Source: an uncultured bacterium (GTDB lineage: Bacteria > Patescibacteriota > Microgenomatia > Levybacterales > UBA12049). From it: DNA of 64,000 bases. The position numbers and the translations under genes were made by a program. Of this stretch, positions 2,829 to 55,114 are shown in pieces. The stretch's first letter is position 1. Every line of letters begins with the position of its first letter. The stretch is taken from NCBI GenBank assembly GCA_963826535.1, contig CAWGXL010000010.1, positions 426,814 through 490,813 on the forward strand, read 5' to 3'. The notes under the pieces were generated by a model. It saw nothing but the letters and a program-made list of their open reading frames with translations. It did no database searches and was not told where the DNA came from.

Positions 2829-2883
2829 AATATTTATGATATTTGATCTCTTAACTTTTAACTTTGAACTTTGAACTATTCTG

Positions 2884-2956
2884 TACCCCTGGAGGGAGTC
2901 GAACCCCCAACCGACTCGTTAGAACCGAGCTGCTCTATCCATTGAGCTACAGGGGC
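2884..2956 (-). tRNA. tRNA-Arg (anticodon TCT)
   Basis: Reverse complement folds as GCCCCTG/TA/GCTC-AATGGATA-GAGC/A/GCTCG-GTTCTAA-CGAGT/.../GGGGG-TTCGACT-CCCTC/CAGGGGT+A. Anticodon loop UUCUAAC. Confidence 0.8.
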
Positions 2957-3132
2957 ATATCACTCATGCAGACTTCCCTTCCAACTCCGTTTCCCCTGAG
3001 TTAATCGGAGTATACTTTAGGAACATCTTCAAATTACGCGCGTAAACCTAAACCCTCAAACATTCTAACAAACCGATATGCGCAATTCAACCAAATCCAA
3101 AATCTTGCTATAATATTTAATATTGTGCAATC

Positions 3133-5286
3133 ATGAAAAAAATTATTAATTCTTCAAATTCACAGTCCTTAAAAATTCCGAATCATATTTATATATCATT
3201 TTCTATAAGTATTTTTTTAAGCTCTTTTTTACTTTTCCAGGTGCAGCCTATTATAAGCAAGTATATTTTACCCTGGTTTGGCGGATCTTCTGCTGTTTGG
3301 ATTACCGCAATACTATTTTTCCAAACACTTCTCCTCCTCGGCTATTTATATGTATTTTTGATCTCACGGTTACAATTAAAAAAACAAATAATTATTCACA
3401 TCTCTTTATTAGTTTTAATTACCTTTAATGTCTTATCGAATTTAAATAGCTCTCAAATACCCATCCTGCCAAATATAAAATCAGGATTGGGTAACAATTT
3501 TGCACCGCAATTTCAAGTACTATGGATACTTTTCATAGGTACGGGGCTCACTTACTTTATTCTGTCTACAACAAGTATACTTCTGCAAAAATGGTTCGGT
3601 GTCACTTATTATGGCAAGTCACCATATATTTTTTATTCTTTGTCTAATATCGCATCCCTTTTAGCTTTAATCAGTTACCCATTCCTTGTTGAGCCGTTCT
3701 TTCAACTAAAAACACAAGGTTTAACATGGTCCATAGGATTCTTAATATATAGCATATTTCTACTTGTCTGTTGTCTTCAAACATTTTCCACAACTTTAAA
3801 ATTAAAACAGAATTTAAGCAAAACTAAAAATAACCTTAAGGTAGTAAACAATATAAGCCGAAAAAAACTTTTTTTATGGATTTTGTTACCGGCCATTTCC
3901 TCCCTAATGCTTATGGCTACTACCAATTTACTAACTCAGTCAATCGCACCCATCCCATTCCTTTGGCTTTTGCCTTTGAGCATATATCTAATCTCGTTTA
4001 TTATCTGCTTCAGTGGAAAGAAATGGTATTTACGCAATCTATATGCATATATATCTCTTGTTACCGGTTTTTTATCTCTTGCGTTCATGTTTGGCAATAT
4101 CCCTTCTCTTCTGACCGGCCTGATCTTTTATAGCTTGATCCTTTTAAGCGCTTGCATGATCTGTCACGGAGAGCTGTATGCTCTCAGACCCGCGTCCATT
4201 CATTTAGATTTATATTATCTATTTATTGCCCTCGGGAGTGTCATAAGCGGAATACTGGTCGGTATAATTGCTCCATTGTTTTTCAAGGGAATTTGGGAAA
4301 CATATATAGGATTTTATCTTACATTTTTACTTACCGTTTGGGTATTAATCCATTATAAAGATTCAATTTTTTATAGGCACCTGCATTTTTTTGCCTATTC
4401 AGATAAGGAAGCATATATCTTTGCACTAATAGCCTACCCGCTCACTCTCATTGCAACTCCCTTGATGATGAATCTACTATCAGGAAGTAATCCAATCACA
4501 CAAAAAGTATGGAGAAATTTCTATGGTGTCCTAAGTGTAAAACACAAAAACGGCAATAATTTGACAACTCTCAATCACGGCAATATCATACATGGTGCCC
4601 AATTCACTGGAAATCTACAATTCGAACCGACAACATATTACGGTAAAAGAAGTGGTGTCGGGCTTGCCATTCTAAATCATCCAAAATACAGGAAAAGAAT
4701 TCACATTGGAATTATCGGACTGGGTACAGGAACTCTGGCCGCTTATGGGAAAAAAGGGGATTCGCTTTCATTTTATGAAATAAATCCTCAAGTTGTTGAA
4801 ATAGCCAAAAGCCAGTTTACATATCTAAAAAATTCTCCTTCAAAAATAAATATTGTATTGGGCGATGGTCGATTGTCATTAGAAAAAGAAGTGCAGGAAA
4901 ATAAAGAAAAATATGATTTACTGATTGTGGATGCTTTTAGTGATGATGCAATACCATTACATTTGCTGACAAATGAAGCTCTATCAGTCTATCTGAAACG
5001 ACTGAGCCGCCCCGACGGCATAATCGCATTTCATATCTCTAATCAGTATATAGATCTAAAACCGGTACTGGTCCAATTAGCAATAAAATACCATTTACAA
5101 CATGCTTTTATTAATTCTCCTGCTTCGAATATAAATATGGCATCGGAGTGGGCATTATTGACATACAATAAAAAAATCCTTGAAATTCCAGCAATAGCCA
5201 ACTATAAATATCCCGAAAATAAAAAATACAAAGAAATAAGTTTGTGGACAGACAATTACAGTAACCTCTTCCAAGTATTAAAATAA
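3133..5286 (+). CDS. Fusion protein: N-terminal polytopic membrane domain plus C-terminal spermidine synthase-like (aminopropyltransferase/SAM MTase fold) domain
   Basis: At least 12 predicted TM segments, then GIIGLGTGTLAAYG ... LIVDAFSDD, which is the spermidine-synthase family glycine-rich and acidic motif pair. Confidence 0.55.
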   Translation: MKKIINSSNSQSLKIPNHIYISFSISIFLSSFLLFQVQPIISKYILPWFGGSSAVWITAILFFQTLLLLGYLYVFLISRLQLKKQIIIHISLLVLITFNVLSNLNSSQIPILPNIKSGLGNNFAPQFQVLWILFIGTGLTYFILSTTSILLQKWFGVTYYGKSPYIFYSLSNIASLLALISYPFLVEPFFQLKTQGLTWSIGFLIYSIFLLVCCLQTFSTTLKLKQNLSKTKNNLKVVNNISRKKLFLWILLPAISSLMLMATTNLLTQSIAPIPFLWLLPLSIYLISFIICFSGKKWYLRNLYAYISLVTGFLSLAFMFGNIPSLLTGLIFYSLILLSACMICHGELYALRPASIHLDLYYLFIALGSVISGILVGIIAPLFFKGIWETYIGFYLTFLLTVWVLIHYKDSIFYRHLHFFAYSDKEAYIFALIAYPLTLIATPLMMNLLSGSNPITQKVWRNFYGVLSVKHKNGNNLTTLNHGNIIHGAQFTGNLQFEPTTYYGKRSGVGLAILNHPKYRKRIHIGIIGLGTGTLAAYGKKGDSLSFYEINPQVVEIAKSQFTYLKNSPSKINIVLGDGRLSLEKEVQENKEKYDLLIVDAFSDDAIPLHLLTNEALSVYLKRLSRPDGIIAFHISNQYIDLKPVLVQLAIKYHLQHAFINSPASNINMASEWALLTYNKKILEIPAIANYKYPENKKYKEISLWTDNYSNLFQVLK

Positions 5287-28486: not shown

Positions 28487-28720
28487 GTAATTGTAATTTG
28501 TATTACAGAATTAATTAATAATAATGCCTAATATAAAGGACATGAAGATGGATTTGTTAAAAATATTTCTACAATCTCATCAAAAAACGGGGGCTTTTCA
28601 AGCTAACACAGATTAGCTTGAGAAGTATCCGTTTTTTTTGGGGTAAACAGCCAGAAAACGGAGAAGGAAGTGCCTCGATTTAATCGGGGATCTCGGTCAA
28701 GAAAGGAGGTGAATTATATA

Positions 28721-29950
28721 ATGACATTTAAAAAACGATTTACAACAGCCATTGCAACCGGAGCAGTCTTACTCAATGCATTGGCGCCAGTAGCTCTAGC
28801 AGAAGAAATTCATGTTACTGGCAACGGCGCGTTCTCAAATAGCACTGTCAATTTATCAAGTGATAATGCAACAGTAGTTAATCAATCGAACAACGCCAAT
28901 GTTACCAACAACGTTTCATCAAATGCATCAACCGGCGGAAATTCAGCCAGCTTCAACACTGGAGGAGATTCTAGAATAGTTACCGGAGATGCAACCACCA
29001 ACGTAGACATTTCTACAGCAGTCAACCTTAATAAAGCTGTGTTGGAAGACTGTGGAAACTGCGAAGGCGGTGATCTTAATGTTAACGTCACAGGTAATGG
29101 TGCGTATTCAGAGAACGATGTTAACGTAACAAAAGATAATTTAGTTAGCGTGTCACAAGAAAATGATGCGGACATCGACAATTATGTAGATGCCAAAGCC
29201 AACACTGGTAAAAACGATTCAAGTTTTAATACCGGTGGCGACAGTATCATTGTGACCGGAGACGCAGAAACCAATGTCACAGTCGACAATAAAGCAAATG
29301 CAAATTTAGCTAGTATCGGCGGCGGCACTGGAACTTCAAACGGTTCTTGGGTCAATGTAACCGGCAACGGTGCATTTAGTGACAACGACGTAGATCTTAA
29401 TTTAGGATCAGCAGTTGTGCTGGATCAGTACAATAATGCAGACATCCATAATTATATCAACGCAAAAGCAAACACAGGTAAAAACGACGCAGCGTTCAAC
29501 ACCGGCGGAGAGACAGTATTAGTCACCGGCGATGCTACAACAAATGTTGAAGTTGACAATCTTGTTAATTTCAATAAAGCAAGCGTTGGCTGTGATTGCA
29601 TCCTTGGAGAATTAGGAGTAAAAATTGCAGGTAACGGTGCCTACTCAGAAAATGATGTAGATGCCGACACCTTCAACGAACTCTTTACCTTCCAGGATAA
29701 TTATGCTGATCTTTACAACGATGTTTACGGCAATGCAAAAACCGGACACAACGACGTAAGCTTTAGCACAGGTGACGTTAATGGCGACCCACTCATCTCA
29801 ACAGGTGACGCGTGGTCTGGTACATCAGTATCAAATGCAGGAAACGTCAACTGGTTCAGTGATGGCAACAGCCTTCACCTTCCAGGGGATTGGGAAGTTA
29901 ATGCTCATTGGGATCTAGAAGATCTTTTGAGCTTTCTCCATCTAGGATAA
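28721..29950 (+). CDS. Secreted N/S/T/G-rich repeat protein 1 (four ~90 aa repeats)
   Basis: RBS AAGGAGGTG. Signal peptide MTFKKRFTTAIATGAVLLNALAPVALA. Repeats VTGNGA[FY]S.ND...NTGG[DE]..[IV]VTGDA.TNV. Confidence 0.75.
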   Translation: MTFKKRFTTAIATGAVLLNALAPVALAEEIHVTGNGAFSNSTVNLSSDNATVVNQSNNANVTNNVSSNASTGGNSASFNTGGDSRIVTGDATTNVDISTAVNLNKAVLEDCGNCEGGDLNVNVTGNGAYSENDVNVTKDNLVSVSQENDADIDNYVDAKANTGKNDSSFNTGGDSIIVTGDAETNVTVDNKANANLASIGGGTGTSNGSWVNVTGNGAFSDNDVDLNLGSAVVLDQYNNADIHNYINAKANTGKNDAAFNTGGETVLVTGDATTNVEVDNLVNFNKASVGCDCILGELGVKIAGNGAYSENDVDADTFNELFTFQDNYADLYNDVYGNAKTGHNDVSFSTGDVNGDPLISTGDAWSGTSVSNAGNVNWFSDGNSLHLPGDWEVNAHWDLEDLLSFLHLG

Positions 29951-30081
29951 TCTTTGAACGGTAGCGGTGTCTGTCTAGCACTTCAGATAGACACCCTACC
30001 AATCAAGATAAATTTAACAAATGTCATTGCGAGAAGCAAAACGACGAAGCAATCTATATAAATAAATAATTAACAAAAACT

Positions 30082-32430
30082 ATGAAAAATTTAAACAAAA
30101 TATTAAGAAAAACTTTTACACTATTTTTAATATCAATACTTCTTTTGTACTCTACGGTACCAGCTTTAGTTATTGCGGAAGAACCAGTACCACCCACCGC
30201 TCCTGAGGCACCTGTTGTAAATGAAACTCCACCTGAAAATCCTGCACCACCCGAAATACCTCAAGCCCCGTCACAAACGGCAAGTAATGATTCTCCAAAT
30301 GATCAATCTAGTCCTTCGGAAACCACCGATACAAATAATTCTGACAATGAACAAAATACAGTACAAAGCCAGGAAGACAAAGATCGTGAAGCAAAAAAGA
30401 AAGCCGCAGGAGAAGCATTTATCGCCAACTATCATAACTCGACACCGGGCAGCACAAATCCCGGCACAGGCACTTCGTCTAATGGGAATGTTGGCGATAC
30501 CACGCTCGCAACAGGAAATGCAACCAATAATGGCTCAAGTGTAACAACAGGCAACAACAATCTTCAATCTGGAAATCAATCAGCAGGTTCGGCAACAGTT
30601 GGCTCAAACAGTCATGAAGGAGCATCTATATCTAATAGCGGCAACGGAGCGGGCTCTGACAATTCCGGGACATCATCTTCTATTGTAAACAATGATACCA
30701 ACCAAAACAACGGCGCCCAAGTTAGTAACATCAACAACCAATCTTCAACCACAGGTACGAACCAATCATCTTTTAACAATGGCAACACCATCCTAAATAG
30801 CGGGGATTCCAACACCTCGGGAACAGCAATCACCGCAGTAAATACGAATGCTGACGGTGTGATGGTATCCGAATTCAACATTGCAGATGACCACAAAGGA
30901 GACATTGTATTAACTGCTGACGCATATCTTGCCAATTGCATTTCCGGTTGCGTCCACCCTGCATGGGTCAGTAATATCGGAAATGGCGCGAATTCCTCAA
31001 ATACAGCCAATGCAAATTCTACGTCTAATAGCTCAACTTTCCAAAACAACGATGCTTCTATTGGGAATAATTTGACTCTTGCCGCCAACTCCGGTAACAA
31101 CGATTCAAGCTACAATACAGGTGGTAATACTACTATAAATACAGGTGATGCAAACATTTCCGCCAACTCATTAACCTTTGCTAATAATAATATAGCCGGT
31201 AATGTCGTATATGGTGTAGTCAACATCTACGGCACACTGGAAGGGGATATAATCTTACCCGAGTATACAGTCGCTAACCCGAGCGCCGCCTTGACATCAA
31301 GTAATTCCGGGAATGGCGCCAATTCATCAAATGCAACTAATATCGCAACTGAGAATAACAACAATACATTCCAAAATAACGACGCGACTATCACCAATGA
31401 TCTACTAATAAACGCTGAAACAGGCAATAACGATTCGAGTACGAATACAGATGGCACTACCACAATTAAAACCGGACAAACTAATGTTGATGCCAATGTA
31501 CTCAATGTCGTCAATTCCAATATAAATGGAGGCACAGTTTGGTTAGTACTTATAAACGAAGCAGGTAAGTGGTTTGGACAATTACTCGGACAACCGGAAG
31601 GACAAAACTACGCCGGATCCGACGGCACCAAATTCGAGCTAAGTCCCGAAGGACAAATTACAGCTAGCCACGATTCGGGTAACACGAACGTTGCTAGCAA
31701 TAATGCCAATGGCGCAGGCTCTGAAAATAATACATCAGTTTCGACTACCAACAATAATACAACAAGTCAAAACAACGATGCCAATATTAACAATTCACTC
31801 AATCTTTCGGCCAATACAGGCGGTAATTCGACAGACTACAACACAGGCGGTAATAATATAGTCAATACAGGTGACGCAAATATAATAGCTAATATGGTTA
31901 ACTTCGTAAACAATAATATTGTAGGTAATGGAAAGCTGGTAGTTACTGTAGTAAATGTTTTCGGTAGCTGGCTAGGTGACTTTGTCGCCCCCGGCCAACA
32001 AAAACGGGAAAAACCAAACCAGTTAGCACAAAATACGAATACTGCTACTAACAATGCTGAATCAACACCAAACAACAATACAACAAAAGTTATACCCACT
32101 CCCTCAGTAACTCAAACAAACAATGGGCAAGTTGCCGGCATCTCCCAATCTGTTCAAAAATCAATAACTTCAGACTTCAAACCAAATAGTGTAAACGGAA
32201 CTAAACAAATTACTTATGTAGATGGGTACAAGGATGCCAAAACAAAAGTAGCAGGTTCCAACACCAATAAATTACTGGCAGATGCATCTTTCAAATATAA
32301 TTCATCAGATAAAACAAAAGCTATTACTATTAATTTAGCCTGGCTCCTGGTTTTAGCCCCAATAATAATTCTTATTATTGCAGGAAGATATATAATCTGG
32401 AGTAAATTTATAACCAAGCTACGTTCATGA
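30082..32430 (+). CDS. Secreted/membrane-anchored N/S/T/G-rich repeat protein 2 (Pro-rich N-region, ~4 repeats, C-terminal TM)
   Basis: Signal peptide, then PPTAPEAPVVNETPPENPAPPEIP. Repeats GNGA.SSN...QNNDA.I.N.L...NTGGN..[IV]NTGDAN. C-terminal hydrophobic anchor LAWLLVLAPIIILIIAG. Confidence 0.75.
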   Translation: MKNLNKILRKTFTLFLISILLLYSTVPALVIAEEPVPPTAPEAPVVNETPPENPAPPEIPQAPSQTASNDSPNDQSSPSETTDTNNSDNEQNTVQSQEDKDREAKKKAAGEAFIANYHNSTPGSTNPGTGTSSNGNVGDTTLATGNATNNGSSVTTGNNNLQSGNQSAGSATVGSNSHEGASISNSGNGAGSDNSGTSSSIVNNDTNQNNGAQVSNINNQSSTTGTNQSSFNNGNTILNSGDSNTSGTAITAVNTNADGVMVSEFNIADDHKGDIVLTADAYLANCISGCVHPAWVSNIGNGANSSNTANANSTSNSSTFQNNDASIGNNLTLAANSGNNDSSYNTGGNTTINTGDANISANSLTFANNNIAGNVVYGVVNIYGTLEGDIILPEYTVANPSAALTSSNSGNGANSSNATNIATENNNNTFQNNDATITNDLLINAETGNNDSSTNTDGTTTIKTGQTNVDANVLNVVNSNINGGTVWLVLINEAGKWFGQLLGQPEGQNYAGSDGTKFELSPEGQITASHDSGNTNVASNNANGAGSENNTSVSTTNNNTTSQNNDANINNSLNLSANTGGNSTDYNTGGNNIVNTGDANIIANMVNFVNNNIVGNGKLVVTVVNVFGSWLGDFVAPGQQKREKPNQLAQNTNTATNNAESTPNNNTTKVIPTPSVTQTNNGQVAGISQSVQKSITSDFKPNSVNGTKQITYVDGYKDAKTKVAGSNTNKLLADASFKYNSSDKTKAITINLAWLLVLAPIIILIIAGRYIIWSKFITKLRS

Positions 32431-32467
32431 AACTGAATGTAGCAAGCCACGTTCATAAACTGAACGT
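32417..32467 (+). repeat. Tandem palindromic units (ACGTTCA ... TGAAYGT) x2
   Basis: agctACGTTCATgaaacTGAATGT then agccACGTTCATaaacTGAACGT. Overlaps the TGA stop of the upstream gene. Related arms GCAACGTTCA/TGAACGTTGC occur at 12578-12640. Confidence 0.5.
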
Positions 32468-32593
32468 AAAAATAAACTAATCTGACCCACTTTAACAACC
32501 TGCCCACCATTAGCTGGGCCGAGTTTACCCTGTAATATACATTACTGAGTAAGATGGATAAACAATATATAAGTAAATAGAGAGACAATCTTC

Positions 32594-33772
32594 ATGAATA
32601 AAAATACAATTATTATAAATAAAATAAAAGTAAAAATATTCCTGATAATAAGCTTTATTTTGTTGACTCTGGTTGCAGCACCAATTGCAGGTGCCGAAGT
32701 GATTACAGTAACTGAAAACGGAGCTAATTCTTCAAGCGAGATAACTACCGAACAAAACAATCAATCAAACACTCAACAATCAAATAATTCAAATATTAAC
32801 AATACAGTTACTTCTACAACCGAAACTGGCAACAACAGTGCTGACAACAACACGAATGGTGATACAATTATTAATACCGGAACAGCGTCTCAAACAACCA
32901 GTATTACAAATGAAGTAAATAAATCAGCCGTAGATCAAACTTGTTGCTCAAATCTAACATCCACATCGATTAATATTTCCGGTAATAGTACAGATTCACA
33001 AAATAATGCAACTAATGTATCCTCGTCTCAAACCATTATCAATGTAATACAAAACGCTACAATAATTAACAATATCAAAGAAACTGCAAGTACCGGCAAC
33101 AATTCTGCTAATAACAACACAGGCAATGTGACTATACATACTGGTGATATAAAATCAACAAATAATATAATTAATTCGGTTAATTCAGCAAGAGTTTCCG
33201 TGCCAAATAATCACCATGAAAATTCAAGTATAAAAATATCTAATAACGGTCATGAATCTGAAAATAGCGTGGTGATCGAAGATAACAAAAGCACAAAAAT
33301 ATTAACTAACAATTCAGTCAATATCAAAAATGATATCAATTCAATTTTTAAGACTGGAAATAATACTGCCGAAGGAAATATAGGCACAATTGATATAAGA
33401 ACCGGCGATATAAAAGCCAAAACAGTCATCCAGAACGATCTAAATATTAACAAAGTAGATCTAATATGCTGCAATCCAAAACAGGTGAAAGAAAAACCGG
33501 TTACCGAAAAACCACAACCGCAACCTCAACCCACACCAAATATCCCTCCAACCCAGCCTACCCCGAATAATCCAACGATTTCTCCACCGTCAGGCCCATC
33601 AAATCCCACAACACAAATTGGACAAGTAGCAGGAGTTGCCTTGAGCTCCCTTCCCACAACCGGCAATAACTGGTTATTCTTTTCATTACTTGGAAATATT
33701 ATAATGCTATTTTTAGGTGCCTATTTAAGACTGCGATCCGGTAATTCACCTGGCTTTGCATTCACTTCCTAA
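32594..33772 (+). CDS. LPXTG cell-wall-anchored repeat protein 3
   Basis: Signal peptide. Same repeat family with CC pairs. Pro/Thr-rich stalk PQPQPTPNIPPTQPTPNNP. Sorting signal LPTTG, then hydrophobic segment, then RLRSG. Confidence 0.75.
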   Translation: MNKNTIIINKIKVKIFLIISFILLTLVAAPIAGAEVITVTENGANSSSEITTEQNNQSNTQQSNNSNINNTVTSTTETGNNSADNNTNGDTIINTGTASQTTSITNEVNKSAVDQTCCSNLTSTSINISGNSTDSQNNATNVSSSQTIINVIQNATIINNIKETASTGNNSANNNTGNVTIHTGDIKSTNNIINSVNSARVSVPNNHHENSSIKISNNGHESENSVVIEDNKSTKILTNNSVNIKNDINSIFKTGNNTAEGNIGTIDIRTGDIKAKTVIQNDLNINKVDLICCNPKQVKEKPVTEKPQPQPQPTPNIPPTQPTPNNPTISPPSGPSNPTTQIGQVAGVALSSLPTTGNNWLFFSLLGNIIMLFLGAYLRLRSGNSPGFAFTS

Positions 33773-33867: not shown

Positions 33868-34431
33868 TTGACTATGCACAAAAGAATAAATTTTCATCTA
33901 GGTAATCTTTTACTTATTTTATCCATTATCGGTTTCGTATATACACTTTACCCACTCATACAAATCTACTTTTTCCCACCAGCACTCAAGCAAATCCAAT
34001 TGCAAAAAGGTACATTTTTAACTATTCCCAAAATCGCGGCTCAATCGTCAATTATTGAAAATGTAAATCCTCGAAACGAAACTGAATATAATCAAGCTCT
34101 AAAAAAGGGTATTGCTCATGCACATGGTTCATCTCTACCAGGCAAAAACGGCACAATATTCCTTTTCGCACATTCCTCAGGATCACCTTGGGAAATCACA
34201 AGACAAAACACTATATTTCTAAGACTCGATGAATTACAAAAACACGATGCTATAGATATAACAAAGGATGGAAAAAAATTTGAGTATATTGTTCGCGAAA
34301 AAAAAGAAGTCTGGCCAAATGAAGTAAATTATCTCTTGCAAACAAGCAGAAACCAACTAATTCTGCAAACCTGCGTCCCCATCGGCACTTCCCTAAAACG
34401 CCTCCTAATCTTCGCCGAACCGGTATTTTAG
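33868..34431 (+). CDS. Sortase (transpeptidase) 1
   Basis: N-terminal TM. His in IFLFAHSSGS. Catalytic TLXTC-type motif LILQTCVP. Conserved Arg downstream. Confidence 0.7.
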   Translation: MTMHKRINFHLGNLLLILSIIGFVYTLYPLIQIYFFPPALKQIQLQKGTFLTIPKIAAQSSIIENVNPRNETEYNQALKKGIAHAHGSSLPGKNGTIFLFAHSSGSPWEITRQNTIFLRLDELQKHDAIDITKDGKKFEYIVREKKEVWPNEVNYLLQTSRNQLILQTCVPIGTSLKRLLIFAEPVF

Positions 34432-46470: not shown

Positions 46471-47265
46471 ATGAAAAAACTTATAATCGATAACTATATT
46501 TTCTTCCTTTTGCCCTTTTTCGCAGCGTATTTTGCCGCATTGTATTTAGTACTTAGTTTGCAATTTTTTTACGGTGATGCGCTATCAAGGTCTTTCCACG
46601 CTTACGCGGTCTTTTTTGCCAATGAACCTAAATTTGCGAATATAGGATTTGTTTGGCCACCGTTTCCAACGCTTTTAGCTTTGCCCTTGACACTGATTAA
46701 GCCACTTAATCTATTTGGTTTTTCAGGAAATTTATTAAGTGCTGTTTTCCTGGGCATTACAAGTTTGTTTCTTAATAAGATTTTTATGTTTTTTAATATC
46801 TCTCTTTTTACGAGAATTGCATTAATGCTCCTTTTTATTTTTAACCCAATGATGCTTTTTTATGGAGCAAATGGAATGTCTGAAATGATCGGTATTTGTT
46901 TTTTAGTAGCAACTTTATTTTATTTCCTATCATATCTCAAATCCGGGGGTATCGGATATCTTATTGCTACGAGCCTCGCGACCTCACTTGCGGTAATGAC
47001 TAGGTATGAGATGGCCGCGCTTATACCGGTAATTATTTTGCTATTAGTCGTAATTAGGATAAACAGGTCCAAGTGGGAGGGTAAAAATAAAAAAAGCTTG
47101 ATCGAGCGGGATTTGTTGCTTTATGGAGCCCCGATTGCATTTACCCTGGCTTTATGGGTATTTGCGAATTGGGCTATTATGCACAACCCGTTTTACTTCA
47201 TGACAAGTGTCTATTCTAATGTTTCCCAAGCTGGTATTCTTCTAGAAAATTCGGAGTACTATTGA
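46471..47265 (+). CDS. Polytopic membrane protein (N-terminal part of possibly split gene)
   Basis: 264 aa, about 8 TM helices. Confidence 0.35.
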   Translation: MKKLIIDNYIFFLLPFFAAYFAALYLVLSLQFFYGDALSRSFHAYAVFFANEPKFANIGFVWPPFPTLLALPLTLIKPLNLFGFSGNLLSAVFLGITSLFLNKIFMFFNISLFTRIALMLLFIFNPMMLFYGANGMSEMIGICFLVATLFYFLSYLKSGGIGYLIATSLATSLAVMTRYEMAALIPVIILLLVVIRINRSKWEGKNKKSLIERDLLLYGAPIAFTLALWVFANWAIMHNPFYFMTSVYSNVSQAGILLENSEYY

Positions 47266-49180: not shown

Positions 49181-50140
49181 CTATCCCCCCGTATATTCCG
49201 GAGGTTCGATGCCCAAACTACTTAATGAATAATCCAGAAGCTCTTTCATCTCCTTCCTCCTGCTCTCGCTATTCAAAATAATCCCTATAATTCTATGTCC
49301 TCCATAGTCCAAATATGTCACCAGACAAAATCCTGCTTCAGGCGTATATCCGGTCTTTACCCCTTTCACCCCCGGATACGTTGTAAGCAAATTAGTTTCG
49401 TTAAAAAGGCCATATCCTTTGTGACCTGAAGTCGCCAGAACATCATAGCTCGGACTGGAGACAATTTTTTCAAACAGTGGAAAATTTTCAATCGCGTACC
49501 GTGTAATAACCAACAAATCATAAGCTGTGGTATATTGCTCCCCATCTCCCTGCAAGCCTGAGGGATTACTGAATCGAGTATCTTTAAGCCCCAGAGCAAG
49601 TGCTTTGTCATTCATTGCCTTTATAAAACCCTCGCGACTGCCGTCTATATAGTTTCTGGCCAAAACCTCTGCCGCATCGTTACCTGATGGCAGCAATAGA
49701 CCATACAACAATTCCTCTCTGGACAATATTTCACCCGTTCCAAGCCCCATTATGTTTTCTCCGACCAAATCTACCCCCAAAACCTCGTAGTTGGCCTCTT
49801 TGCCTTTTTCAAGAGCGATAATTGCTGTCATAACTTTACTCAAAGACGCCATAGGTCTCCGAATTCTTGGATTTTTCTCAAAGAGCACCTTTTCTGTACT
49901 CAAGTCATAAACCAAAACGGAGTCGGCAGTAATCTCCGGCATACTATTTTCGCTGCCATAAGCCTCTGTCCAGAAAGGCAACCAAAGATCAAGCAAGGTT
50001 ACCTGTTTATTTTTCTCAAGAGTCAAAAAATCAGGCAGCGGGGAAATCAATGAAGCGTCATCTCGCAATCGCAATTCAAAAAACCAAAACAAACCTGTAA
50101 AGATAACCGACAGAACCACAATAGATAAAAAATGCTTCAT
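49181..50140 (-). CDS. D-alanyl-D-alanine carboxypeptidase (PBP5/DacA-type serine peptidase)
   Basis: SXXK ASLSKVMT, SXN LLPSGNDAA, KTG GVKTGYTPEAG. N-terminal signal anchor. Confidence 0.85.
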   Translation of the reverse strand: MKHFLSIVVLSVIFTGLFWFFELRLRDDASLISPLPDFLTLEKNKQVTLLDLWLPFWTEAYGSENSMPEITADSVLVYDLSTEKVLFEKNPRIRRPMASLSKVMTAIIALEKGKEANYEVLGVDLVGENIMGLGTGEILSREELLYGLLLPSGNDAAEVLARNYIDGSREGFIKAMNDKALALGLKDTRFSNPSGLQGDGEQYTTAYDLLVITRYAIENFPLFEKIVSSPSYDVLATSGHKGYGLFNETNLLTTYPGVKGVKTGYTPEAGFCLVTYLDYGGHRIIGIILNSESRRKEMKELLDYSLSSLGIEPPEYTGG

Positions 50141-50307
50141 AATTGAATATCTTGAGGAATAGCTTCTATCCTAGTAGATTTTACCGACTTTTACAAGAGT
50201 TTAAATAATCTGATCTATTTAGATATTATTCGACATAATTGACAAAACCTCATCAATAATCTATTCTAAATAGAGTAATAACTACACAAGAAAGGGGGTG
50301 AGTAAAA

Positions 50308-50892
50308 ATGTTAATAAAATTAATCTTAAGTCTTATTATAATAGTCGGAGTCGGCGCAGCAGCATTCTCGGCAACTAGTGCGCTTTTATCCGATACTGCT
50401 ATATTGGCAGCTAATACTTTTAGTACAGGCACTTTTGATTTGCAAATTTCTAAAAGTACTTCCAGTAATCCTACTACATTCGCATCAGATTCAATTACCG
50501 GTTTTACTGATACTTTTCTACCGGGACAAAGCAAATCAAAAACATTTTGGTTAAAAAATAACAGCACGGATATAGATTTCGCGACAGCAGCGCAATCATC
50601 CAGTATTAGTGGGGAAATTAGCCCAGGTAGTGTAACAGTTGCATTTACACCTGTTAGCAACGATGACACTTCCGTTGTAGGAACAGCAACATCACACACA
50701 TTAACTGAATGGGGATCAGTATCTGCTTTAGACAGCAATATTGGTCATGGCGGAAAACAAAGATATAGGATGGAAGTTACACTTGATCCAAGCGTAACAA
50801 CAACTGGCTCTATTAACTTTGATTTCGTCTTTACGGGCACAGAAGTCGTACCTGCACCAACGGTTACGCCTACTGTGACACCAACACCGTAA
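50308..50892 (+). CDS. SipW-cognate (TasA/camelysin-like) secreted fibre protein candidate
   Basis: SD AAAGGGGGTGA. N-terminal LIIIVGVGAAAFSATSALLSDTAILAANTFSTGTFDL matches the SipW-cognate signal region (A.FSDTE..NTF.AGT.DL). Thr/Pro-rich C-terminus. Confidence 0.6.
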   Translation: MLIKLILSLIIIVGVGAAAFSATSALLSDTAILAANTFSTGTFDLQISKSTSSNPTTFASDSITGFTDTFLPGQSKSKTFWLKNNSTDIDFATAAQSSSISGEISPGSVTVAFTPVSNDDTSVVGTATSHTLTEWGSVSALDSNIGHGGKQRYRMEVTLDPSVTTTGSINFDFVFTGTEVVPAPTVTPTVTPTP

Positions 50893-50986
50893 TAGGATGG
50901 GTTTAAATAGTGCAAAACTCAACCTTTATATGGTCAAGAATTCACCCCCTCTCTCGCAAAAAACGGGAGAGGGGAAGACTAAAAAA

Positions 50987-51958
50987 ATGAAAAATGTAAT
51001 TAAAAATTTTGTGATTATTTTCGTTTTACTTATTGGTTTTACTTTATTTGTGTTATCTAACCAGACACTCGGATGGAGAGCCTTTATTGTTACCTCCGCC
51101 TCAATGGAACCCGCTGTCGGTACCGGGTCCTTAGTAGTAACACAATACAAACATCCTAATACATTATCTAAAAACGACATTATTACCTTTATCCCTCCAA
51201 TAAAGACACACGCATTTATCACCCATCGTATTAGTAAAGTATCTCAAAATAAAAGTCTAACGACTTTCAAAACAAAAGGTGATAATAACAAAAACGAAGA
51301 CAAATGGACGCTCGCAGGCGGGGGAGTAGTTGGAAAAGTCACCTACATAATTCCATATCTTGGATTTTTTATGTCCTTTGTCCAAAGCAAAATAGGCATC
51401 CTCCTTTTCATCCTCCTTCCGGCTGTATACATCATTATTGATGAAATATTTAATATTGCAAAAACCATCAAGCACCACAAAAAGAAAATAATCCCGGCAA
51501 ATGAAATATCAACTACTGCATTATTAATTTTTTTAAGCTCCATATTTTTCCCGCTTCAACCGGCCTACGCGCTCCTGTCTGACTCTGCAGGTCTGACCAA
51601 TAATACTTTTACAGTAAATTCTATTACCCCAACCGTTACACCTTTCGAATTCCCTAGCTGTAAGGATCCGCACGGAACGATTATCTCATCATACAAGACA
51701 GGAAGGCACGAAATTATCGGTGTGGGGTTGCTTATTGGTAGCGATACTGTATATCAGTTAACTGAAGGTTCCAAAGAAAAAGTACTGCAGTGCTTCTGTC
51801 CTGAATCAGGACCAGGTATTCAAACAAATTGGATTAAGACAACAGAAATAGAAAGGTTTAAATTTGACGGATGGCCGCATTCTATCACCTCCGGCCTTAG
51901 TTGGAATCTAGACGACAACCCGTATGTAGCACAAAATATTGAATATACTTGCAATTAA
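50987..51958 (+). CDS. Signal peptidase I, SipW/archaeal type, fused to a C-terminal SipW-cognate-like domain
   Basis: VTSASMEPAVGTGS (catalytic Ser box SxSMEP). Conserved His region ITHRISKV. After a second TM: PLQPAYALLSDSAGLTNNTFTVNSI, a cognate-signal-like motif, then ~150 aa Cys-containing domain. Confidence 0.65.
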   Translation: MKNVIKNFVIIFVLLIGFTLFVLSNQTLGWRAFIVTSASMEPAVGTGSLVVTQYKHPNTLSKNDIITFIPPIKTHAFITHRISKVSQNKSLTTFKTKGDNNKNEDKWTLAGGGVVGKVTYIIPYLGFFMSFVQSKIGILLFILLPAVYIIIDEIFNIAKTIKHHKKKIIPANEISTTALLIFLSSIFFPLQPAYALLSDSAGLTNNTFTVNSITPTVTPFEFPSCKDPHGTIISSYKTGRHEIIGVGLLIGSDTVYQLTEGSKEKVLQCFCPESGPGIQTNWIKTTEIERFKFDGWPHSITSGLSWNLDDNPYVAQNIEYTCN

Positions 51959-51965
51959 GCGGAAA

Positions 51966-52523
51966 CTATTCTTTTACAGCCAATGTTGCATCACTCTTAT
52001 AGACTGCGACTGCGACCATTCTTTGCGAATCCAAAAACCCTGTGCAAGTATACAAAGTTATCCTTTTATCCTTTGAGGGAGCCAAAATACTCGACTGTGT
52101 ATAAGGAACAACTGAGGTATATTGAACAATAAACTTTTTTCTTGTTTTATCTTCATACTCTACATCAATATCCATATCCGGCCGGATATTGACCAATGGT
52201 CCGAACAAGCTCGCCCAATCATGGGCATAAATTATGCTGTTACCTGTATTTCCGGGAATTGGTGAAGAAAGTAGATAGGATGCACCTTTAGTTGTAGTTT
52301 GCCACTCACTTTTGACAACTTTAGCCGGAAAGATAGGTAGATCAATACCCAAATCCCGAATAGTAATCCTAACCGGCGGATTAACCACCGCTTCTTCCTT
52401 ATAATTTCCAACATAATTCTTAAAAGCCAACCTATTCGGGTTATTCCGCTCCCATATTAGAAAAACTGCAGCAATAAAACAGACAATTCCAAAAAAAAGC
52501 AATAAATATGCAATCCTTTTCAT
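51966..52523 (-). CDS. Sortase (transpeptidase) 2
   Basis: N-terminal TM. His in SIIYAHDWAS. Catalytic TLXTC: RITLYTCTG. Confidence 0.7.
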   Translation of the reverse strand: MKRIAYLLLFFGIVCFIAAVFLIWERNNPNRLAFKNYVGNYKEEAVVNPPVRITIRDLGIDLPIFPAKVVKSEWQTTTKGASYLLSSPIPGNTGNSIIYAHDWASLFGPLVNIRPDMDIDVEYEDKTRKKFIVQYTSVVPYTQSSILAPSKDKRITLYTCTGFLDSQRMVAVAVYKSDATLAVKE

Positions 52524-52561
52524 AATTACTATATTAATAATATCGAGTTGAGTTTCAAATT

Positions 52562-53269
52562 TTACGACTTGCTTAATTTCTTTAAAACAAGCCCGGAGAT
52601 AAGGGAGATTGCTCCTGCAATAATGACCGAATAGATAAATGCTGCGTTTCCTGTGCTTGCAAGTGATTCATGCGCACCCCCAACTTGACCGGTAACAAGT
52701 GCTGGTGTTGCAGTTGGACCCGGCCCTGGTGTGCTTGTAGGCCCTGGTGTAGGCGTGCTAGTAGGCCCTGTAGTCGCTGTAGGGGTCGGTGTAGGCGTCA
52801 CAACCACTTCTCCGCAGTCTTTCACTGTATACACTTTAGCATCCATTGCGTATGCGTAATAAGGTTTTTCCTCAAGATAACGATTTCCTCGTATTAGATC
52901 TGTTTGCACCCTACATGAATTACTGTCACCTTCAAGAGAAATCGTTTCAGTTTTACCCGACGCTACTTTTACGGTTTTATGAGTAATGTATACCTGGCTA
53001 TCAATAAAACTAGGTGAATTTTCTTCTTGAGGAGCCTCATACTTTACCAATGTTGCGTCGTATTCACAAGCTTTGTTCTTTGAAAAGTTAGTAACTGTAG
53101 CATTATTTTTATCCAACAGCTGCCCTTGCAAATCTACATCTATATCACCATCACATACCTCGGTTGTTTGATTTTCCTCTGTAGTAGCAAGTACAACAGA
53201 AGCAGACAAGGTCAAACAAGTAGTGACCAAAATGAGCGGTAGAGTAATATTAAGTAAAATAGTTTTCAT
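52562..53269 (-). CDS. LAXTG-type cell-wall-anchored Thr/Pro-rich surface protein
   Basis: Signal peptide. TPTPTPTATTGPTSTPTPGPTSTPGPGPTATP stalk. Sorting signal LASTG, then hydrophobic segment, then KKLSKS. Confidence 0.7.
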   Translation of the reverse strand: MKTILLNITLPLILVTTCLTLSASVVLATTEENQTTEVCDGDIDVDLQGQLLDKNNATVTNFSKNKACEYDATLVKYEAPQEENSPSFIDSQVYITHKTVKVASGKTETISLEGDSNSCRVQTDLIRGNRYLEEKPYYAYAMDAKVYTVKDCGEVVVTPTPTPTATTGPTSTPTPGPTSTPGPGPTATPALVTGQVGGAHESLASTGNAAFIYSVIIAGAISLISGLVLKKLSKS

Positions 53270-53346
53270 AGAAAAAGACCTATATTAAATGTAAAGAGGA
53301 TTATAGCATACCAAAATAGGTATGTCAATAGTATATACTATATACC

Positions 53347-53691
53347 TTAAAGTTCCTGTAGAATTACTATAGCGTCACCTAAATTATCGTAATATTCAAC
53401 TTTAAGAATGTGCACGCCCTCGGTAAGTGTGACTGTTGGTGTATATGTTGTAATATCATGGTCAGTCCAATCATCTACGAGTAATTGGTCATCAACCCAA
53501 AATCGAACACCGTCATTTGATTGAAGGCTAAAAGAATAGTCACCAGCCGCGAATTGTTTCTCCTTAATCCATCGGGCTGAAAACTGATCTACATTTACTA
53601 ATGGATCCGGCGAGCCTGCACCCCAATTAAAATTAATTTGTGCGTCCTGACGAGTCAGAACTGGAGCGCCCGTCAATGCGATATTATTGAA
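53347..53691 (-). CDS. PA14 domain protein, C-terminal fragment truncated at the compositional junction
   Basis: NIALTGAPVLTRQDAQINFNWGAGSPDP...DQFSARW...GDYSFSLQSNDGVRFWVDDQLLVDDW is a canonical PA14 fold. The apparent N-terminus MLEPGLLHF is antisense of the fumC start region, so the true 5' end is missing. Confidence 0.6.
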   Translation of the reverse strand, partial: FNNIALTGAPVLTRQDAQINFNWGAGSPDPLVNVDQFSARWIKEKQFAAGDYSFSLQSNDGVRFWVDDQLLVDDWTDHDITTYTPTVTLTEGVHILKVEYYDNLGDAIVILQEL

Positions 53692-55114
53692 ATGCAGCAA
53701 ACCAGGCTCGAGCACGACTCGCTCGGGCCGGTGCCGGTCCCGCGGACCGGCTGTGGGGCGCGCAGACCGAGCGGTCGCGCACCCATTTCGCGATCGGCGA
53801 CCCCGACGTCTACCGGTGGCCGCGCGGCGGTGATTCGCGCGTTCGGCTGGTCAAGGCCGCCGCCGCCGATGCGAACCTGCAGCTCGGGGTGATCGACGCC
53901 GACGTCGCCGCGCTCATCGCGCAGGCGTCGCTGGAAGTGGCCGCCGGCGAGTGGGACGCGAGTTCCCGCTCGGCGTGTTCCAGACCGGCTCGGGCACGCA
54001 CACGCAACATGAACGCCAACGAGGTGATCGCCAACCGCGCCAATCAGCTCGCGCGGCGGCGCGCTCGGCAGCGTATCGGCCCGTGCACCCCAACGACCAC
54101 GTGAACCGCGGGCAGTCGTCGAACGACGTGTTCCCGGCCGTCATGCACCTGGCGACGCTCGAGGCGCTCGAACGGCTCGAGCCGGCGGTCGCCGCGCTGC
54201 GCGGCCGCGCTCGTGCGAGTCACGCCGCGCGCTGGCACGACCTGCCGATGCTGGGCCGCACGCACCTGCAGGACGCCACGCCGATCATGCTCGGCGACGT
54301 CGTGGCCAGCTGGACGGCGCAGATCGATCAGCGCCTGGACGCGGCTGGCGCAGGCGCGGCGCGGGCTGCACGCGCTGCCGCTCGGCGGCACTGCCGTCGG
54401 CACAGGGCTCAACGCGCCATCGCGACTTCGGGCGCGCTGGCGATCGCCGCCTGGCCGACGCGACCGGCTATCCGCTGCGCCAGGCACCGAACCTGCCCGC
54501 GGCCCTCGCCGCGCACGACGCCATGGCGACGGTGAGCGCCGCGCTGCGGGCCTGGCCGGGGCGCTCTTCAAGATGGCCAACGACATCCGGCTTACGCGTT
54601 CGGGGCCGCGCGCGGGCCTGGGCGAGCTGCGGCTGCCGGCCAACGAGCCGGGCTCGTCGATCATGCCGGGCAAGGTGAACCCCAGCCAGTGCGAGGCGCT
54701 GACGATGGTGGCGGTGCACGTCTTCGGCTGCGACGCCGCCGTGGCGTGGGCCAACGCCCAGGGTCCGCTGCAGCTGAACGTCTACAAGCCCGTGATCCTC
54801 CACAACGTGCTCGAACCGGCGCGGCTGCTGCGCGACGCGTGACGTGGCGTTCACACGCTACTGCGCTCGACGGGCTCGAGCCGGGCCGGCGCGCATCGAG
54901 GCGCATCTGCAGGCCTCGCTGATGCTCGTGACCGCGCTCGTGCCGCACATCGGCTACGACCGCGCCGCGAAGTCGCGCTGGCGCCCATCGCGAAGGACGC
55001 GCGCTGCGGGAGGCGGCGGTGGACTCGGGCGTGGTGAGCGCGGACAACTTCGACGGGTGGGTGCGCCCGGCGGAGATGGCGCGTCCCCATGGCCCGAAAG
55101 TGGCCGGGGACTAG
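53692..55114 (+). pseudogene. fumC: Fumarate hydratase class II (fumC-like), reading frame broken by at least 4 frameshifts
   Basis: [85 protein letters not shown] and LVTALVPHIGYDRAAK are found across frames 1, 0, 2, 0, 1. Confidence 0.7.

Follow-up and report, generated by a model that had tools for sequence, protein, structure and literature searches.

A predicted TasA-like fiber subunit and a SipW-type peptidase fused to its own putative substrate are encoded convergently to a sortase-LASTG operon in a CPR bacterium

In Bacillus subtilis, the tapA-sipW-tasA operon encodes a dedicated SipW-type (Ser/His) signal peptidase beside a TasA-superfamily subunit and a second motif-bearing substrate with a different body, TapA. 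TapA and AbpB were proposed as strand-donating minor components, and TasA homologues are known from Patescibacteria (PMC9245690). In Clostridium perfringens, srtB adjoins sipW-bsaA-bsaB-bsaC in opposite orientation, and an LPXTG-bearing BsaB homologue is present in most strains; BsaA itself forms isopeptide bonds (PMC7395162, PMC11580942). In neighborhood surveys, LPXTG proteins, a signal peptidase, and sortases often accompanied BsaA/TasA and bacterial AbpX loci (PMC11580942; bioRxiv 10.64898/2026.01.04.697558). Since published TasA/SipW loci already include examples with a sortase and LPXTG proteins at their flanks, this combination is not new, contrary to a preliminary description of the DNA analyzed here. 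Pam pili (bioRxiv 10.64898/2026.03.03.709456), known from CPR bacteria of the Saccharimonadia and Microgenomatia, resemble such fibers in being extracellular filaments that assemble by donor-strand exchange. They differ from the locus described below by their two-domain pilins and membrane-anchored chaperones, and the Pam paper mentions no SipW-type peptidase, TasA, or sortase in the pam operon; they are a different system.

The window (i.e., the whole stretch of 64,000 nucleotides analyzed) includes a low-GC part of 53.7 kb from a CPR/Patescibacteria-type bacterium. All five ORFs and sequence motifs of the preliminary description were found where it had placed them. The ORF list shows genes for a TasA-like protein and a SipW-type peptidase on the plus strand and for a sortase, its substrate, and a PA14-domain protein on the minus strand. 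Since two strands are involved, the genes do not constitute a single operon. The region consists of two convergent surface-protein operons arranged tail to tail, rather than of "one compact unit" as previously described. Between the stop of the PA14 gene (53347) and the start of the substrate gene (53269) lies a sigma-70 promoter of the substrate-sortase operon with 12/12 consensus matches (TTGACA-17-TATAAT with TG; 53300..53328, minus strand). A promoter-like site upstream of the TasA-like gene (TTGACA-17-TATTCT; 50239..50267, plus strand) had 10/12 matches, a call which represents a consensus match only, the regional count of such sites being not above that in shuffled sequences. The upstream neighbor of the TasA-like gene on the opposite strand encodes a D-Ala-D-Ala carboxypeptidase (Peptidase_S11; 49181..50140, minus strand; PF00768, 159 bits), as it does in the related loci L002, L004, L087, and L089, which indicates conserved gene order.

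The first gene of the plus-strand operon (50308..50892; ribosome-binding site AAAGGGGGTGAG) encodes a TasA-like fiber subunit of 194 aa that contains AAAFSATSALLSDTAILAANTFSTGTFDL. Behind a signal peptide with predicted cleavage between SATSA and LLSD, it has the N-terminal motif LLSDTAILAANTFSTGTFDL and a jelly-roll body; its tail is TP-rich. The protein had been called SipW-cognate, with the SipW-cognate models named as the check. Taken alone, it gave no match to either PF12389 or TIGR04088 at E≤1, and at the level of the single sequence the earlier claim fails. Its family, in contrast, does reach these models: 11 of the 24 members, which keep the motifs ALLSD..N.FSTGTVDL and FDFVFTGTQ, match PF12389, and 2 match TIGR04088. 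Moreover, the AF2 model of the 194-aa protein (pLDDT, 87) resembles TasA, AbpA, and other fiber subunits. At the level of family and predicted fold, the protein thus belongs to the TasA superfamily. The cleavage/strand motif is comparable to that of B. subtilis (LLSD...NTFSTGTFDL in the window, AFND...ATFASGTLDL in TasA). However, the window subunit is much shorter than its B. subtilis counterpart and misses both models on its own, its gene precedes that of the peptidase, and a sortase operon lies alongside.

The second gene (50987-51958, plus strand) encodes a SipW-type signal peptidase of 323 aa containing SASMEP. Alternative starts lie upstream at 50897 and 50930; 50987 is favored by the ribosome-binding site GGAGAGGGG and the match to homologues. 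The catalytic part, an archaeal/ER-type signal peptidase I (50987..51517), consists of TM1, a domain with Ser39/His80/Asp99/Asp105, TM2, and the basic loop KTIKHHKKK. It passed TIGR02228 (archaeal-type SPase I) with 95.6 bits (cutoff, 51.85), and the columns of S39, H80, D99, and D105 were invariant across 39 homologues, in agreement with its initial assignment as a SipW/archaeal-type enzyme. In contrast to B. subtilis SipW, it remained below the cutoff of the Bacillus SipW equivalog model (104.5 versus 190 bits).

Behind the catalytic part, the reading frame continues into what appears to be a second substrate. By sequence and hydropathy, positions 51518..51643 (plus strand) encode a putative internal second signal peptide (h-region TTALLIFLSSIFF, c-region PLQPAYA), a second cleavage site with a copy of the N-terminal motif (LLSDSAGLTNNTFTVNS), and a TP linker, bringing the hydrophobic segments of the fusion to three in all. 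The motif is kept in most of ∼45 close homologues with the C-terminal region present, drawn from independent assemblies, and D199 and N206 are nearly invariant in the homologue alignment. In a survey of 87 sources, a strict motif found the element fused to the peptidase in at least 13 loci, ∼8 further loci had variant motifs, and in 8 it was split off as an overlapping downstream gene. In L025, L048, and L061, it is the N terminus of a gene of its own, which has a 4-bp overlap with the stop of the peptidase gene; the stand-alone L025 form passed TIGR04088 (20.1 bits; cutoff, 19). The fused cargo of the window, as a single sequence, was below TIGR04088 and PF12389. Judging from these data, the peptidase-substrate fusion is real and conserved. 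In the AF2 monomer, the motif region of the cargo was disordered (pLDDT below 50), while the adjoining domain was modeled with confidence; this is what a strand in need of a partner should look like. Subunit and cargo motifs also showed weak within-genome co-variation (mean of 8.0 versus 7.3 identities of 16; permutation P of ∼0.02; n = 9). A second motif-bearing substrate with a different body is reminiscent of TapA, but here it is translationally fused to the peptidase, which is not reported for C. perfringens. AbpA/AbpB and AbpX loci likewise feature a proposed minor component supplying the first strand (PMC9245690; 10.64898/2026.01.04.697558), and frequent links of bacterial AbpX loci to SPase I, LPXTG-anchor proteins, and sortases have been reported (10.64898/2026.01.04.697558). 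However, the AbpA operon has no dedicated peptidase, and the SPase I of AbpX loci is described as having ten TM helices, the fused partner reported being a DUF5305 accessory subunit instead of a substrate.

The C-terminal end of the fusion is a Cys-rich cargo module (51644..51955, plus strand; FPSC...QCFCPE.G.GIQTNW...WNLD..Y.A.N.EY.C), with relatives in 307 representative clusters at E≤1e-3. A sorting signal was present in 112 of the best 148 relatives, being [LFM]AxTG in 92 and LPxTG in 12. In the window and L089, the module is attached to the peptidase; in L002/L003, L004, L006, and L087, it is found on an LA[ST]TG sortase substrate. From this distribution, we infer that the module is exchanged between peptidase fusions and the LAxTG proteins handled by the neighboring sortase. 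In L088, the same position is occupied by another sortase subfamily and a GNGA-repeat LPATG substrate, beside a peptidase with GNGA-repeat-like cargo.

On the minus strand, positions 51966..52523 encode a small membrane-anchored sortase of 185 aa with His101, Cys160 (in TLYTCTG), and Arg168. Its identification as a sortase was confirmed by PF04203 (58.7 bits; cutoff, 26.6), and the catalytic H, C, and R were invariant in the sortase alignment. The designation "class-E-like," on the other hand, had to be abandoned: the class E model gave 18 bits (cutoff, 160), the best class model was class F with 35 bits (cutoff, 166), and none of ten CPR sortases tested reached any NCBIfam class model. Solved sortases were only weakly similar (best E, 1e-4). 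The low class E score, together with the absence of the long beta6/beta7 insertion from the alignment, speaks against class E identity, and the sequence relationships place the enzyme in an unclassified CPR subfamily linked to LAxTG substrates. With class E sortases of Actinobacteria (SrtE1; PMC5148588), it has in common the LAxTG substrate motif and a Tyr (in GASY) that precedes the catalytic His by 18 residues. This Tyr is present in 5/6 LAxTG-linked CPR sortases (window, L002, L004, L006, and L089; Phe in L087) and is replaced, mostly by His, in the LPxTG-linked subfamily. Unlike class E enzymes, the window sortase also has no cytoplasmic N-terminal extension. The Tyr may correspond to SrtE1 Tyr229, and the resemblance probably reflects convergent specificity.

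The substrate gene (52562..53269, minus strand) encodes a Thr/Pro-rich protein of 235 aa. Its ordinary signal peptide is followed by a Cys-containing N-terminal domain and a TP-rich linker; the sorting signal at 52565-52663 (minus strand), identified by motif and hydropathy, is composed of LASTG, a hydrophobic TM stretch, and KKLSKS. The protein matched no Pfam or NCBIfam family and gave no jelly-roll match; in L089, a homologous domain with LAGTG adjoins the sortase. Within the low-GC part of the window, the three-part signal was found in only two ORFs, each adjoining a sortase gene. As originally suggested, LAxTG is a distinct signal: the proteins on which this sortase subfamily acts keep it (as LASTG, LATTG, and LAGTG), and it prevails among the signal-bearing module relatives described above. 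The sortase substrates, including the LASTG protein, lack the TasA-type N-terminal motif and have ordinary signal peptides, and the TasA-like proteins of every locus checked lack a sorting signal. The fiber is thus not indicated to be covalently anchored, and its proposed attachment to the wall was not supported. C. perfringens is alike in that a TasA-family fiber operon with SipW lies beside an oppositely oriented sortase gene, with an LPXTG-type protein nearby and no sorting signal on the major subunit. However, the LPXTG protein there is a TasA-family paralogue (the BsaB homologue), whereas here the LAxTG signal is found on unrelated modules.

The PA14 domain of the adjacent ORF (53347-53715, minus strand) is genuine (PF07691, 60.3 bits; cutoff, 24), but the gene is a C-terminal fragment (53347..53705). 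At ∼53,700, the GC content steps from ∼0.4 to 0.75, with unrelated 70%-GC DNA beyond. The PA14 gene is therefore without its 5' part, and its "GTG start" is an artifact. It also lies beyond the 12/12 promoter of the substrate gene and is missing from this position in L002, L004, L087, L088, and L089, which have other genes instead. The PA14 gene was thus rejected as a member of a conserved unit and is an incomplete bystander.

The core of the arrangement, a TasA-type subunit with a SipW-type peptidase and, next to them, a sortase with an LAxTG substrate, is present as first described, and co-occurrence across genomes bore it out. A convergent sortase lies beside the peptidase or module in 7/11 distinct family loci and is missing from 4/11 (L001, L005, L008, and L090). 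In other lineages (L009, L020, L025, and L061), the order is sortase, TasA-like gene, peptidase, all on the same strand. Among 80 wider SipW-like loci, the density of sortases was 2.4 per 100 kb at distances of up to 3 kb from the peptidase and 0.6 per 100 kb at 3 to 10 kb, an enrichment based on 7 versus 2 events. These data suggest that the adjacency recurs beyond what shared ancestry alone predicts.

How closely the two operons are coupled can be judged from evidence pointing in both directions. Two independent surface modules could simply lie side by side, their recurrence being due to gene order passed on by descent and to a general tendency of envelope genes to cluster in small CPR genomes. 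The convergent orientation, the separate promoter of the substrate gene, the sortase-free family loci, and the partition of sorting signals and TasA-type motifs between the two sets of proteins would all fit, as would the near ubiquity of sortases in Microgenomates (PMC6744442) and the finding that deletion of srtB in C. perfringens left BsaA polymers unchanged (PMC7395162). Yet inherited order does not readily account for adjacency in different gene orders in distant lineages, for the ∼4-fold higher sortase density within 3 kb, or for one Cys-rich module alternating between peptidase fusion and sortase substrate; in L088, even the replacement sortase and its GNGA-repeat substrate lie next to GNGA-like cargo. 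We therefore regard complete independence as rather unlikely. Very improbable, at the other extreme, is the initially proposed model of a class E sortase anchoring a TasA-type fiber to the wall via the LASTG protein, with PA14 as adhesin. The genes are adjacent, the LAxTG signal does exist and is peculiar to this sortase subfamily, the PA14 domain is truly of the carbohydrate-binding type, and the LPXTG-bearing BsaB homologue (PMC11580942) offers a precedent. Against this stand the failed class assignment of the sortase and its relatives, the missing beta6/beta7 insertion, a PA14 gene cut at a junction beyond the promoter and missing from all relatives' loci, TasA-like proteins without sorting signals, and a LASTG protein with neither TasA-type motif nor jelly-roll match.

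A different question is whether the C-terminal extension of the peptidase is released. It might stay uncleaved and tethered by the third membrane segment, as a strand-donating fiber anchor or an extracellular accessory domain. The motif begins right behind this hydrophobic segment, the widespread fusion suggests a gain from keeping both parts together, SPase I fused to accessory proteins is known (DUF5305; 10.64898/2026.01.04.697558), and C. perfringens BsaA oligomers were reported to be membrane rather than wall anchored (PMC11580942). Tethering nevertheless seems unlikely to us: the junction resembles the cleavage site of the subunit, with small residues at −1/−3 (PAYA/LLSD versus ATSA/LLSD), the element occurs in other lineages as an ordinary secreted protein on its own, with an N-terminal signal peptide, and the highly variable cargo modules fit display better than an enzyme accessory role.

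We favor, with a probability of roughly 0.6, a fiber subunit with a dedicated, substrate-bearing peptidase, beside a LASTG/sortase operon linked to it evolutionarily and probably functionally. In operon 1, the subunit would be exported by Sec, cleaved between SATSA and LLSD, and polymerized by donor-strand exchange via its new N-terminal strand, by homology with TasA and AbpA. In the fusion, catalytic domain, TM2, basic loop, third hydrophobic segment, AxA-type c-region (PAYA/LLSD junction), motif, TP linker, and Cys-rich module follow each other in this order, and the peptidase most likely frees its own C-terminal cargo. The freed cargo, which has no jelly-roll body, would be a TapA/AbpB-like minor subunit able to donate a strand but not to accept one, and may therefore nucleate or cap the fiber, placing the Cys-rich module at one end. 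In operon 2, driven by its own promoter, the sortase presumably joins the LASTG protein to the cell wall by standard sortase chemistry. We base the evolutionary, and probably functional, link between the two operons on their recurrent pairing and on the exchange of the Cys-rich module between fusion and LAxTG substrate. Relative to known TasA/SipW-sortase loci, what is new here is a peptidase fused to a second, putative substrate of its own.

All five open reading frames of the region, and the motifs quoted for them in the preliminary description, were present in the window. The genes for the TasA-like subunit (194 aa; 50308-50892) and the SipW-type peptidase (323 aa; 50987-51958) are on the plus strand, and those for the sortase (51966-52523), the 235-aa LASTG protein (52562-53269) and a PA14 protein (53347-53705) are on the minus strand. 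The stop codons of the convergent peptidase and sortase genes are 7 bp apart, and a search for an intrinsic terminator between these genes found none. Since the strands converge and a perfect TTGACA-17-TATAAT promoter lies between the PA14 stop and the start of the LASTG-protein gene, the region was read as two operons plus a truncated neighbor. The PA14 fragment is a solid domain match to PF07691 (60.3 bits; cutoff, 24). A junction at ~53,700 cuts its reading frame, so that the C-terminal ~120 residues alone are present, and because of this truncation and the intervening promoter the earlier inclusion of PA14 in the unit was not borne out. Window positions 1 to ~53,700 have 32 to 45% GC and the look of a CPR/Patescibacteria genome, and the remainder, to 64,000, has about 70% GC. 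At 53,690-53,720, GC steps from about 40 to about 75% over ~50 bases. Here a low-GC CPR-like contig meets unrelated DNA of high GC, as the result of either a contig boundary or a chimeric assembly. All five proteins of the region were singletons in the protein collection; relatives of the subunit came from assemblies labeled Patescibacteria group bacterium or from unlabeled metagenome bins.

Upstream of the TasA-like gene, sometimes with one gene intervening, a Peptidase_S11 (D-Ala-D-Ala carboxypeptidase) gene was seen on the opposite strand (window 49181-50140; in the related, mostly metagenomic loci L002 5912-6880, L004 5982-6947, L087 3084-4058 and L089 1144-2094). Thr/Pro-rich linkers occur in the subunit tail (50850-50890), in the peptidase extension (51620-51643) and in the LASTG protein (52680-52790), and genes for PMT/GT-C-like membrane glycosyltransferases are close by (window 46471-47265; L002 11703-14900; L090 9034-12099); these linkers may be O-glycosylated.

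The subunit had been described as carrying a SipW-cognate N-terminal pattern, but on its own it failed the corresponding models, with no match at E<=1 to PF12389 (Peptidase_M73) or to TIGR04088, a 34-position signal model with a cutoff of 19 bits; the substrate fused to the peptidase, described below and here termed the cargo, did not match TIGR04088 either. An exact look-up of the subunit sequence gave no record and supplied no native contig. The subunit belongs to a tight family (n = 24) that shares two conserved motifs, ALLSD..L..NTFSTGTVDL and, at the C terminus, FDFVFTGTQ. PF12389 was matched at E<=1 by 11 of these 24 close relatives (best, 1.1e-9), and the link of the subunit to PF12389 is therefore transitive only. 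Two of the 24 passed TIGR04088; the family has LLSD at the place where this model expects an aromatic residue (FSD/FTD). The model was also passed by the TasA-like proteins of loci L048 (29.8 bits) and L061 (23.0 bits), and TIGR04088-passing proteins of other CPR lineages could be aligned motif for motif with the subunit family (ATFALFTDTATSEDNTFASGNADL versus ATSALLSDTAILAANTFSTGTFDL). The AF2 model of the subunit was confident (pLDDT 87) and has the jelly-roll fold of TasA-superfamily fiber subunits, with moderate comparison scores. A sequence profile of the family retrieved no TasA structure from the PDB, just a chance xylanase match, which leaves the comparison of folds as the sole link. 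We take the subunit to be a divergent TasA-superfamily protein, which presumably polymerizes by donor-strand exchange. Patescibacterial TasA homologues have been noted before, from the distribution of PF12389 (PMC9245690). A scan of genomes with the FDFVFTGTQ pattern from the subunit alignment proved too narrow (2 loci); for co-occurrence we turned to 80 metagenome loci together with 9 exact-protein look-ups.

The peptidase gene directly follows the subunit gene, 94 nt downstream, and a TasA-like gene was immediately upstream of the peptidase gene in 44 of 60 evaluable metagenome loci. The protein passed TIGR02228 (archaeal/ER-type SPase I, S26B; 95.6 bits, cutoff 51.85) and failed NF046067, the equivalog model of Bacillus SipW (104.5 bits; cutoff, 190); judged by these scores, it is SipW-like and not a SipW orthologue. 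S39 (in SMEP), H80, D99 and D105 were invariant across 39 homologues, with His replacing the bacterial Lys. In the C-terminal part of the protein, the catalytic domain and a second membrane segment are followed by a basic loop of sequence KTIKHHKKK. Next come a third hydrophobic segment and PLQPAYA|LLSDSAGLTNNTFTVNS; this stretch constitutes a complete signal peptide and carries the cleavage and N-terminal motif of the subunit a second time. Behind this motif, the cargo has a TP linker that leads into a Cys-rich module of 100 residues (51644-51955). Most of ~45 close peptidase homologues from many independent assemblies carry the fused element, and the fusion is for this reason not an assembly artifact. 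Asp199 and Asn206 of the peptidase are nearly invariant, and the module behind them varies: we found the Cys-rich module, GNGAGS-type repeats, an LTY.H...GTCS domain, lamin-tail-like domains and low-complexity tails.

Among 87 sources (86 fetched loci and the window), at least 13 loci had the fused form by the strict motif, and ~8 further loci had it with variant motifs. Fusions are common, present in roughly one in five of the sampled SipW-like loci. Fused peptidases were recorded in the window and in L002, L004, L005, L008, L015, L017, L024, L038, L049, L050, L059, L069 and L087 to L090; the peptidase of L006 (176 aa) is without the extension. In 8 of the 87 sources the same element is the N terminus encoded by a separate gene. 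In L025, L048 and L061 this gene and the peptidase stop have a 4-bp overlap, and in L025 its product passed TIGR04088 (20.1 bits). Since the element occurs elsewhere as a separate gene downstream of the peptidase, the fusion is a gene fusion that joins sipW to a downstream second substrate. The fused substrate has the N-terminal motif and no jelly-roll body. It thereby resembles TapA and AbpB, which have been proposed as strand-donating minor components (PMC9245690). Cargo and subunit motifs shared 8.0 of 16 identities within genomes and 7.3 between genomes (p ~0.02, n = 9), which hints only weakly at co-evolution. Elsewhere, in other lineages, a lamin-tail-like domain closes the cargo or minor protein (GHSLERDPDG.D...DF.....PTPG, judged by eye; L005 3201-4160, L059 9950-11263, L061 10507-11211), and behind it comes another secreted protein, whose GGxGxD repeats are Ca-binding-like.

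The Cys-rich module is ~100 aa long (FPSC...QCFCPE.G.GIQTNW...WNL) and was found in 307 representative clusters. Word-indexed homologue search with the isolated module yielded 1 match, and an exhaustive search of representatives was used instead. In most family members a signal peptide precedes the module, which a linker connects to an LAxTG anchor; a sorting signal was present in 112 of the top 148 relatives ([LFM]AxTG in 92, LPxTG in 12), and some representatives (P0087, P0088, P0115) have two to three tandem copies. Its predicted model was confident, but no solved structure was related to it. Besides the window copy, the module was mapped at L002 10104-10646, L004 11379-11924 and L087 9060-9701. 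The Asn/Thr-rich GNGA repeats (GNGA.S.N.V...TGGN.A..NTGG...TGDA) correspond to no Pfam family and occur free, LPxTG-anchored and as cargo of SipW-type peptidases, often between peptidase and sortase (L004 10454-10780; L087 7120-8421; L088 6847-7488 and 8522-9661). In the window, repeats of this type lie within 28670-33772, in locus A, its second sortase locus.

The sortase passed PF04203 (58.7 bits; cutoff, 26.6), and its H101, C160 (TLYTC) and R168 were invariant in the sortase alignment (A4). It had been called class E-like. Class E sortases have a long β6/β7 loop insertion, and a Tyr in their β3/β4 loop has been proposed to select Ala at P3 (PMC5148588). With 18.1 bits, the sortase fell far below the cutoff of the class E model NF033747 (160), its best-scoring class was F (35.1 bits; cutoff, 166), and the closest solved sortases were class A and C types at E values of 1e-4 or weaker. 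The long insertion is absent: judged from sequence only, ~16 residues separate a β6-like strand from TLYTC, as in class A. Class E was rejected on the score, the weak matches to solved sortases and the missing insertion, and no NCBIfam class fits; nine related CPR sortases likewise failed every class model, with a best-scoring class that differed among them. The other part of the claim, the LAxTG signal, stood. The LASTG protein ends in LASTG-NAAFIYSVIIAGAISLISGLVL-KKLSKS, a full pentapeptide with hydrophobic segment and basic tail, and substrates of this kind adjoin this sortase subfamily in six loci: LASTG in the window, L002/L003, L004 and L087, LATTG in L006 (frameshifted) and LAGTG in L089. 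The N-terminal domain of the LASTG protein belongs to no Pfam or NCBIfam family, and one homologue was seen, in L089. In L006, a stop or frameshift breaks the gene for the Cys-rich LATTG substrate (2880-3428, minus strand), a neighbor of the sortase gene; the break reflects either a pseudogene or an error in the assembly.

The low-GC part contains one other reading frame with a sorting signal, the LPTTG protein of locus A, which is also sortase adjacent. The sortase subfamily of locus A (33868-34431) adjoins LPTTG, LPATG and LPKTG substrates and is marked in A4 by GIAH and by 9 inserted residues behind the His; the subfamily of 51966-52523 has GASY before the catalytic His and LAxTG neighbors. 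The GASY Tyr, 18 residues before that His, was present in five of six LAxTG-linked sortases (window, L002, L004, L006 and L089; Phe in L087), and the same position in the LPxTG-linked subfamily is mostly His. This Tyr echoes the class E residue proposed to select Ala (SrtE1 Tyr229; PMC5148588), by sequence position alone. By genomic pairing, the two sortase subfamilies of one genome seem to read LAxTG and LPxTG separately.

The association of TasA-type and SipW-type genes with a sortase and an LAxTG substrate proved real. In 7 of 11 distinct loci of the window's peptidase family, a sortase gene lies convergently downstream of the peptidase within 3 kb (present in the window, L002/L003, L004, L006, L087, L088 and L089; lacking in L001, L005, L008 and L090). 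Among 80 more distant SipW-like loci, 7 had a sortase within 3 kb, a density of 2.4 per 100 kb of flank versus 0.6 at 3 to 10 kb, and four of these seven have the order sortase, TasA-like gene, peptidase on one strand. Direct anchoring of a TasA-like paralogue via LPXTG, as in most C. perfringens strains, was rejected, since no TasA-like protein in any locus examined had a sorting signal. Two further points count against a mechanical link: the sortase substrates are without the TasA-type N-terminal motif, and in C. perfringens deletion of the neighboring srtB left BsaA polymers unchanged (PMC7395162). The peptidase carries the Cys-rich module in the window and L089, two loci whose sortase substrates have a different domain, homologous between them. 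In L002/L003, L004, L006 and L087, the Cys-rich module is itself the LAxTG substrate, and the reported peptidase cargo (L002/L003, L004 and L087) is GNGAGS repeats. L088 has a locus A-type sortase with a GNGA-repeat LPATG substrate at the same position. This apparent exchange of modules between peptidase fusion and sortase substrate is the strongest link between the operons.

The combination of genes had been thought undescribed, which was incorrect: a neighborhood survey found genes of the BsaA/TasA family often together with LPxTG proteins, signal peptidase and sortase, and in most C. perfringens strains the BsaB homologue itself carries LPXTG (PMC11580942); a frequent linkage with sortases and LPXTG-anchor proteins is also described for bacterial AbpX loci (10.64898/2026.01.04.697558). 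The preliminary description was thus mostly correct in what it observed; of its interpretation, the association and the LAxTG signal hold, and the class E label, the role of PA14 and the novelty do not. The Pam pili of CPR bacteria are a donor-strand system too, but, unlike the window locus, have a different architecture without a peptidase, and were rejected as an explanation. Our literature search found no published description of a SipW-type peptidase-substrate fusion, the nearest case being the accessory protein DUF5305, which is in some cases fused to SPase I. Nor did the literature searched describe a CPR version of the system with such a fusion, the LAxTG-anchored Cys-rich module family, or two unclassified sortase subfamilies apparently paired with LAxTG and LPxTG.

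We tentatively propose that the peptidase, fused to its own second substrate, is a built-in fiber primer and that both operons form one module-display system, a reading to which we give a probability of about 0.3. Synthesis of a peptidase molecule would each time bring with it a single strand-donating minor subunit, which the peptidase itself would release beside the export site. The cargo strand LLSDSAGLTNNTFTV would fill the groove of a subunit as the subunit's own strand does, and the released minor subunit would seed or cap the TasA-like fiber, bearing a swappable surface module (Cys-rich module, GNGA repeat, lamin-tail-like domain or others). Since the cargo module in this lineage would be the one normally fixed to the wall by the neighboring LAxTG sortase, the convergent operons could be one system that places a module on the wall or on the fiber.

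CPR/Patescibacteria presumably live attached to other cells; apart from type IV pili and the Pam pili, which were described recently, little is known of how they attach. Our analysis indicates that CPR bacteria also carry TasA-type fibers. The locus adds a peptidase apparently carrying its own fiber-priming substrate and a large family of Cys-rich surface modules, and its interest would rest on the peptidase fusion and the module swap. Should the fusion not work as proposed, the region would be an ordinary envelope-gene cluster. If it does, it would provide a simple coupling of fiber initiation to the export site, together with natural orthogonal sortase/signal pairs outside Actinobacteria.
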